64,000 nucleotides of DNA, from NCBI RefSeq assembly GCF_055900595.2, contig NZ_CM148325.1; one strand, 5' to 3'. The stretch's first letter is position 1. The number at the start of each line of letters is the position of its first letter. Under the pieces are notes generated by a model. The model was given only the letters and a program-made list of their open reading frames with translations, was not told the origin of the DNA and did not search any database. Below, one piece after another: positions 15,330-15,713 of the stretch. Position numbers and translations under genes: made by a program.

Positions 15330-15626
15330 ATGCAATTGGAAGAGGTCGCTAAGGCACTGAAAGAGTTAGGTCATCCGACCCGTTTGTTCATATTTAAGCA
15401 TCTGGTCAAAGCGGGGGAACAAGGTTTGCCGGTCGGTGAGTTGCAAAAGCAGCTTGGGATACCCGGCTCTACACTCAGTCACCATATTTCAGCACTGGTA
15501 TCGGTAGGACTGGTCAAACAAAACCGTGAGAGTCGAACGCTGATGTGTGTTTCGCAATACGCAATGCTGGAAGCGATAATTGAATTCTTACGCGAGGAGT
15601 GCTGCGTAAATAGCAAAATTGCCTGA
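15330..15626 (+). CDS. ArsR/SmtB-family winged-helix transcriptional regulator
   Basis: 98 aa ORF, HTH region LPVGELQKQLGIPGSTLSHHISAL; C-terminal vicinal Cys pair (EECCVN); divergent from the permease gene; GAGGGGG RBS. Confidence 0.75.
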   Translation: MQLEEVAKALKELGHPTRLFIFKHLVKAGEQGLPVGELQKQLGIPGSTLSHHISALVSVGLVKQNRESRTLMCVSQYAMLEAIIEFLREECCVNSKIA

Positions 15627-15676
15627 TACGCTACGCTCTACAGATTTCATGCCATATATTGAATTTGCACGGTTTT

Positions 15677-15713
15677 GTAGGTCGGATAAGACGCGTTAGC
15701 GTCGCATCCGACA
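15677..15713. repeat. REP (repetitive extragenic palindrome) element
   Basis: gtaggtcggataagacgcgttagcgtcgcatccgaca, REP-like imperfect palindrome between the ArsR-family gene and arsC. Confidence 0.5.

Follow-up and report, generated by a model that had tools for sequence, protein, structure and literature searches.

Our comparison of sequences makes it highly probable that two repeat blocks in the 64,000-nt stretch of Escherichia coli DNA analysed here (the window) are copies of BIME-1. It is part of the same reading that at the first block, between the convergent ArsR-like gene and arsC (site A), an ArsP_1-family permease/ArsR-like gene pair is ancestral and the BIME a later arrival, a bystander to the gene-content difference between strains rather than its recombination junction. 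The second block lies between the convergent genes uspB and pitA (site B).

The window runs from slp to pitA and is the same as strain Z0117EC0005 (NZ_CP098223) over the site A region. BIME polymorphism between strains is established, and the two elements are members of a long-known family with nothing new in kind. On their own they are of little significance, since BIME-1/REP elements and their strain polymorphism have long been described and K-12 carries orthologues at both loci. What is of use is a corrected gene history, in which the ArsP_1/ArsR pair would be ancestral in Escherichia and deleted in K-12-type genomes, and the BIME would be a later arrival by which the regulator was shortened by 8 residues.

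Structure and class of the two elements

BIME-1 is defined as a z1 and a y REP, one of each and inverted relative to one another, present in single copy and joined by a long, well-conserved L linker that often holds an IHF site, with GTAG 5' of the palindrome foot (PMC3333891). On these sequence characters we assign sites A and B to BIME-1 (also termed RIP or RIB), with z1 truncated at site A in this strain (Table 1). At both sites, a z1 and a y REP stand in inverse orientation, the z1 of site A being represented by its left arm and CTAC only; GTAG and CTAC face a long conserved linker of 35 nt; a single doublet is present without tandem copies; and the doublet is placed between convergent 3' ends, with the exception of a 6-nt overlap of site A with the ArsR-like ORF. 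As expected of BIME-1, the family is dispersed in many copies per genome: the 134-bp unit of site B is found at no fewer than 32 places per genome (median at least 40) in 5,425 of 5,426 E. coli genomes, a count of which REP-only matches may make up much, and 100 shuffles of the window yielded 0 matches to a degenerate REP pattern. Copy number and shuffle result together mark the blocks as members of a dispersed repeat family, whose likeness is not due to chance. The RefSeq K-12 annotation table contains no REP features for this region.

The sequence-only reading had described the blocks at 15621-15713 and 27117-27218 as near-identical, typical BIMEs, each with a short palindrome, an AT-rich spacer and a REP palindrome. 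The same three-part arrangement is indeed found at both places, no more than 3 nt from these positions, and the description as typical BIMEs holds for the BIME-1 type (z1, L linker and y in single copy between convergent genes). Near-identity is too strong a term: 76 of the 90 ungapped columns of the alignment are identical (84%), or 75% when the gaps (one of 8 bp, one of 2 bp and two of 1 bp) are counted. The elements lie within the proposed extents, but the shared unit is longer, about 133-139 bp (15613-15745 and 27112-27250), and adds GCAAAAT at the left and ATRAACRAAGCGCACTWT..CAACWATC.G (~30 nt) at the right. BIME-1 has defined flanking motifs. The short palindrome is borne out at site B, where z1 is complete, but not at site A, where the left arm alone remains.

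Table 1. Features at and around the two BIME-1 elements, in window positions
Feature	Position	Strand	Remark
dctR, slp, then yhiS-like ORF	12417-13640 (yhiS-like ORF)	-	gene order, left part
Segment missing from K-12-type genomes	13950..15557		homology stops ~13949-13972, resumes 15557
ArsP_1-family permease (PF03773)	14221..15234	-	divergent partner of ArsR-like gene; Pfam
ArsR/SmtB-family regulator, 98 aa	15330..15626	+	NCBIfam NF033788; Pfam HTH_20/HTH_5; C-terminal alignment
Site A left flank motif GCAAAATT	15613..15620	+	common to both BIME copies
Site A z1 REP remnant, inverted	15621..15641	+	left arm GCCTGATACGCTACGC + TCTAC; 8 bp of 3' arm gone
Site A L linker	15642..15676	+	35 nt, 37% G+C
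Site A y-type REP	15677..15713	+	GTAG (15677) + imperfect palindrome; stable hairpin of site A
Site A right flank motif TAAACGAAGCGCACTTTACCAACTATCGGCAG	15714..15745	+	also at site B
Terminator-like hairpin by arsC stop codon	15744..15759	+	GGGGGCATATCCCCC in BIME-less allele
arsC	15760..16185	-	convergent with ArsR-like gene; stop codon 45 nt from y REP
arsC, arsB, arsR, then agrB (two copies), dinQ, gor		- (arsC, arsB, arsR)	gene order beyond arsC
uspA, then uspB	26706-27041 (uspB)	+ (uspB)	further right
Duplicated terminator hairpin, left copy	27070..27096	-	T-run on minus strand; terminator-like for pitA
Site B left flank motif GCAAAATT	27112..27119	+	also repeat family D17
Site B complete z1 REP, inverted	27120..27148	+	ends CTAC (27145-27148); exact match to GCCTGATGCGCTACGCTTATCAGGCCTAC
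Site B L linker	27149..27183	+	35 nt
Site B y REP	27184..27218	+	GTAG (27184) + palindrome; head 1 mismatch/17, tail 0/14
Site B right flank motif	27219..27247	+
Duplicated terminator hairpin, right copy	27248..27270	+	TTTT after it; terminator-like for uspB
pitA	27286-28785	-	further right

Site A lies immediately left of the arsC-side terminator-like hairpin and differs from the described BIME-1 in three respects of its own. First, its z1 is 8 bp short and cannot fold: the remnant GCCTGATACGCTACGCTCTAC, with CTAC at 15638-15641, has a folding energy of 0 kcal/mol, as compared with -12.6 kcal/mol for the complete z1 of the K-12 orthologue, and the truncation is found in all ~2,011 genomes that have both the pair and the BIME. 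Second, the element supplies the stop codon of a coding sequence. It shares the final 6 nt of the ArsR-like ORF, the TGA (15624-15626) falls within the z1 remnant, and the ArsR-like protein of BIME alleles ends in ...NSKIA*, for which ATT GCC TGA come from the BIME. Third, the right-hand REP has a y-like foot, but its inner stem is 2 nt longer, like that of z2. This REP matches the REP pattern with 2 mismatches, where 0 matches are expected by chance, and folds at -21.3 kcal/mol (z = -6.2). At site B, z1 and y are both intact and fold at -13.2 and -18.7 kcal/mol, respectively. Taken whole, the site A element folds only marginally beyond shuffles (z = -2.0 and -2.45), and the site B element well beyond them (z = -5.1 and -4.65).

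The linkers of both sites share TGC.AT.TATT.AATTTGCA.G.TTTT. A scan for IHF sites with WATCAANNNNTTR at up to 1 mismatch found no site in either window copy, and relaxation to 2 mismatches gave one site per linker. At site A this is the degenerate IHF-like site ATTCAATATATGG on the minus strand, with 2 mismatches to WATCARNNNNTTR; at site B it is ATTTAATAGATTG, also on the minus strand, with 2 mismatches as against 1 in the K-12 orthologue. An IHF core with 2 mismatches in both window copies is a further difference from BIME-1 as described. In a subgroup of pair-bearing genomes (L005, L007), an extra 11-bp linker deletion (window 15654-15664) takes out TATATTGAATT and with it most of the IHF-like site; about 577 genomes, in the 80-90% identity band, belong to this subgroup.

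Gene history beside arsC

A 2.7-kb query spanning the site A locus finds the ArsP_1/ArsR pair present in 2,224 of 5,426 complete E. coli genomes and absent from ~3,200. The window's own 2.7-kb haplotype, at 99% identity or more, occurs in 16 genomes only. The BIME is in place in pair-lacking genomes, as seen in K-12-type AML002, MG1655, O157:H7 Z1832, JA0257 and A37, which keep the final ~65 bp of the ArsR-like ORF, a BIME with complete z1 and the arsC-proximal flank. The right breakpoint of the missing segment falls inside the ArsR-like ORF, 64 bp left of the BIME, and no REP was found at its left edge (~13950-13972). A 105-bp filler in K-12 holds a ~40-bp stretch that aligns to window 14551-14591, in the middle part of the permease gene, with a score of 30, as compared with 20.9 ± 2.2 (maximum 27) for shuffles. 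Since fragments of both genes survive in K-12, K-12 carries a deletion, and we read K-12-type genomes as deletion derivatives, not uninserted sites. A K-12-type query joining the remnant and the BIME is at least 80% covered in 3,176 of the 5,426 genomes, and 24 of 24 sampled rows of full-length matches are gap-free over the whole query.

The pair is also found without the BIME. In strain 06-00048, the pair is present, 20 bp lie between the regulator gene and arsC, and the ArsR-like ORF is 106 aa long; a BIME-less junction of this kind occurs in 212 of the 5,426 E. coli genomes. E. whittamii has arsB-arsC, a 106-aa ArsR-like gene and the permease, again without a BIME (junction ...AGCAAAACAGATGGCGAAGGAGCCGCGGAGAACAAATAAGGGGGTATATCCCCC...). 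It was the sole species recovered in a scan of outgroups with the ArsR-like 3'-end pattern (one genome per species), and the outgroup evidence is thus that of one species. Because the pair lies next to arsC in E. whittamii, it is not an extra insertion, as the sequence-only reading had supposed. Furthermore, the tail of the 106-aa protein, TNGEGAAENK, is homologous to the tail TDVAEHAGKNG of a plasmid copy with 84% DNA identity. The long tail shared with this plasmid copy, taken together with the short IA* ending of the BIME alleles, marks the BIME as the later arrival.

The left edge of the element retains a trace of its arrival. In the left flank of site A, GCAAAA belongs to the native coding sequence of the ArsR-like gene (Ser-Lys codons), and the same position reads AG(C/T)AAAAC in BIME-less allele L008, in E. 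whittamii and in the plasmid homologue. The native GCAAAA acts as the microhomology at the left insertion junction of site A.

The plasmid homologue is carried by IncF plasmids such as pPE15-IncF (NZ_CP041629, L011), on which an ArsP_1 permease/ArsR pair with 83-84% DNA identity has as its neighbours arsH and a Tn3-family transposase in truncated form; the stretch alignable to the window extends to 15618 and stops right at the BIME left edge. E. whittamii is without the yhiS-like ORF, and slp abuts the permease module there (L012 2760-2957; window 12334-13972). Its homology to the window begins at ~13951, no more than ~20 bp from where the K-12-type deletion starts on the left (~13972).

The haplotypes at site A were counted with queries across the junction. 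A first query, a 60-bp megablast, returned only 167 genomes, a count that is too low because SNPs break the 28-nt megablast seed. A chimeric 154-nt query, in which the window's ArsR-like tail was joined to a restored z1, found 2,011 genomes at a threshold of at least 80% coverage; the top match is the window's own strain, at 94.8% and with a span of 146 nt (8 bp short), and the 577 genomes matching at 80-90% identity have spans of 135 nt, a shortfall that reflects their additional 11-bp linker deletion. The pair together with a complete z1 was found by this query in 0 of the 5,426 genomes. Three haplotypes result: the pair with a BIME whose z1 is truncated (2,011 genomes), the pair without a BIME (212) and a complete BIME with the pair deleted (3,176). 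They sum to 5,399 of 5,426, and the first two (2,011 + 212) closely approach the 2,224 pair-bearing genomes.

These comparisons point to a history in four steps. The ancestral locus would have held the permease/ArsR pair by arsC, with a 106-aa regulator and no BIME. BIME-1 would then have entered next to the arsC-side terminator hairpin, on its left, via the GCAAAA microhomology, replacing the last 32 bp (10 codons) of the regulator gene and placing the stop codon in z1. Subsequently, one lineage (~2,011 genomes, the window included) would have lost 8 bp of the z1 arm, and another (3,176 genomes, including K-12 and O157:H7) would have deleted most of the pair, while a complete BIME stayed behind together with ~65 bp of the regulator and ~40 bp of the permease sequence. 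Such a history makes the BIME a bystander to the gene-content difference. Since the intermediate with the pair and a complete z1 is absent from the 5,426 genomes, the order of events reflects parsimony and not observation.

A reversal of this polarity, with the BIME-bearing state ancestral and the BIME-less allele derived by excision or by replacement with foreign DNA, is highly unlikely. The rarity of BIME-less alleles in E. coli (212 of 5,426) and the recovery of a single outgroup fit such a reversal, and the distinctive protein accessions of these alleles make recombinational import plausible; however, excision could not remake a 10-codon tail homologous to that of a plasmid homologue of 84% identity, E. 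whittamii has the same tail, and import into some E. coli leaves the older state unchanged. If the pair came first and the BIME later, as we prefer, the BIME-less alleles of E. coli could be recombination imports and need not be relics.

It is extremely unlikely that the blocks are small RNA genes (ES036/CssrF or naRNA4-like) instead of generic repeats. The Rfam model ES036 (CssrF, RF02751; gathering score 37.6 bits) does reach its gathering score at site B (27141-27181, minus strand, 37.9 bits) and also matches site A (15634-15676, minus strand, 25.6 bits), but the former is right at the threshold and the latter well below it. Its consensus AAAuUUGUGCAAAUUCAAUAAAUUGCAGGAaAUACGUAGGCCU simply reproduces the L linker of BIME-1 together with the first part of z1 (GTAGGCC), so that any BIME-1 copy is likely to come near the gathering threshold and a match does not tell an sRNA gene from a repeat copy; to us, the ES036 matches independently confirm that the linker is conserved and do not speak for an sRNA gene. 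naRNA4 gives partial matches to the REP hairpins, namely the y REP of site A (29.7 bits) and, with its first hairpin, the y REP of site B (34.8 bits), and these cover one hairpin only, at about half of the gathering score of 59.5. At site B, no promoter-like site was found, and a literature search on ES036/CssrF returned nothing relevant. The small-RNA reading was dropped, as the consensus of the Rfam model is the repeat linker itself.

It is scarcely credible that the pair is an insertion and the 15.6-kb REP/BIME its recombination junction, as target or by-product: K-12 is without the pair, the ArsR-like ORF adjoins the BIME at its 3' end, a homologous pair occurs on IncF plasmids by arsH and a Tn3 remnant, and REPs are known to be targeted by some insertion sequences (PMC1525189), but homology to pair-lacking genomes resumes 64 bp inside the ORF and not exactly at the BIME, the left edge is without a REP, K-12 keeps fragments of both genes, and E. 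whittamii as well as 212 E. coli genomes have the pair beside arsC without any BIME. The sequence-only reading, which had placed the BIME exactly at the boundary of an insertion, had itself stated that a REP in the same place in genomes without the inserted pair would refute it. The REP is in that place in 3,176 pair-lacking genomes, and the junction idea is thereby refuted.

Site B, possible function and spread

The BIME at site B is itself polymorphic, being filled in 1,940 of 5,426 E. coli genomes; genomes outside these 1,940 align over 187 bp, as compared with 361 bp. The empty site, as in O157:H7 FRIK2455 and an O102:H6 strain, is one bidirectional terminator, AAAAAAA-GCGGGCCAGTAAACTGACCCGC-TCGTTTT. 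In the filled site, a terminator hairpin is present on each side of an insert of ~151 bp, the left hairpin copy keeping the A-run and the right one the T-run, and the two copies align at a score of 35 (shuffles, 11.7 ± 2.0). The terminator-like site of each gene now lies beyond the BIME. We infer that the uspB and pitA transcripts would both take in the BIME, in overlapping 3' UTRs.

Of the REPs in E. coli, about 60% are situated between convergent genes, and REPs act locally as terminators or attenuators and as blocks to 3' decay (bioRxiv 10.64898/2026.03.23.713779); PMC3333891 describes the linkers of BIME-1 as sites for IHF. By analogy with this published REP work, from which the functional part of our explanation is drawn, the hairpins at sites A and B would join both converging 3' UTRs and could serve there as local decay blocks and transcription attenuators, and the linker could serve as an IHF site. 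IHF binding at the window copies is doubtful given the 2 mismatches to the core consensus at both. With the z1 of site A destroyed, only half of that element can act as a hairpin, namely the y REP, at a distance of 45 nt from the stop codon of arsC and 50 nt from that of the ArsR-like gene.

Ribosomes are stalled by REPs placed at most 15 nt from a stop codon (Liang, Rudd and Deutscher 2015, as summarised in PMC12306157). Site A resembles such stop-codon REPs in that the ArsR-like stop codon lies within z1, at a distance of 0 nt. It differs from them in that the z1 hairpin is destroyed wherever the ORF is intact and the BIME present, and in that the y REP begins 50 nt past the stop codon. As the z1 hairpin is destroyed, stop-codon stalling cannot now act through z1 at site A. 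The association of an intact regulator gene with a broken z1 is perfect and striking, and is without statistical weight because only two tightly linked events underlie it. Speculatively, it would fit the published stalling by stop-codon REPs: a z1 hairpin over the regulator stop codon may have been selected against, and the conflict may have been resolved either by the 8-bp loss (2,011 genomes) or by loss of the genes (3,176 genomes).

The two filled/empty site pairs may also record how BIME-1 units spread. Each insertion immediately adjoins a bidirectional terminator hairpin in the gap separating two convergent genes, as might be the case if BIME-1 spread to hairpins by template switching or illegitimate recombination. 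We regard the combination of such hairpin-targeted spread with selection against a stop-codon z1 hairpin as rather unlikely. If spread of this kind did occur, the hairpin duplication at site B and the microhomology with 32-bp loss at site A would mean that neither was a clean insertion by a Y1 transposase.

In this regard, the elements can be compared with the REPIN/RAYT system (TnpAREP), for whose doublets mobilisation by a Y1 transposase is proposed. Both have an inverted REP doublet with a spacer, and the two filled/empty polymorphisms in the window indicate doublets moved or gained as units. Transposition of the IS200/IS605 Y1 type is not known to make a target duplication. The 32-bp replacement at a microhomology at site A and the ~23-27-bp hairpin duplication at site B are distinct from that mode. 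The putative iREP-I cleavage motif TGCC|TGAT (PMC3333891) is present at 15619-15626 and 27118-27125. The exact empty sites of two BIME-1 insertions are small, clean examples for studies of spread, and so is the absence of the pair with an intact z1 among 5,426 genomes.

Surroundings of the two elements

The flanks of the site A locus have features of their own. Across the yhiS and arsC flanks (13400-16300), the window is only ~88-90% identical to K-12, a divergence far above that of typical E. coli core DNA. The 407-aa yhiS-like ORF has no match in Pfam or NCBIfam. In strain CUVET18-1475 (NZ_CP098841), an IS3-family transposase splits the region corresponding to window 13600-16300 into two pieces over 4 kb.

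Further right, two full matches to the AgrB-family antisense RNA (~90 bits each) lie beside dinQ at 18045-18362 on the minus strand, with a third, partial copy of the AgrB repeat at 18530-18562; the source genome annotates a hypothetical ORF across these copies. In addition, a solitary z-like REP (GTAGGCCTGATAAGGCGTATACGCTGCATCAGGTAAC) is present in the uspA-dtpB intergenic region at 25779-25815, adjoined by a GC-rich hairpin at ~25836-25856.
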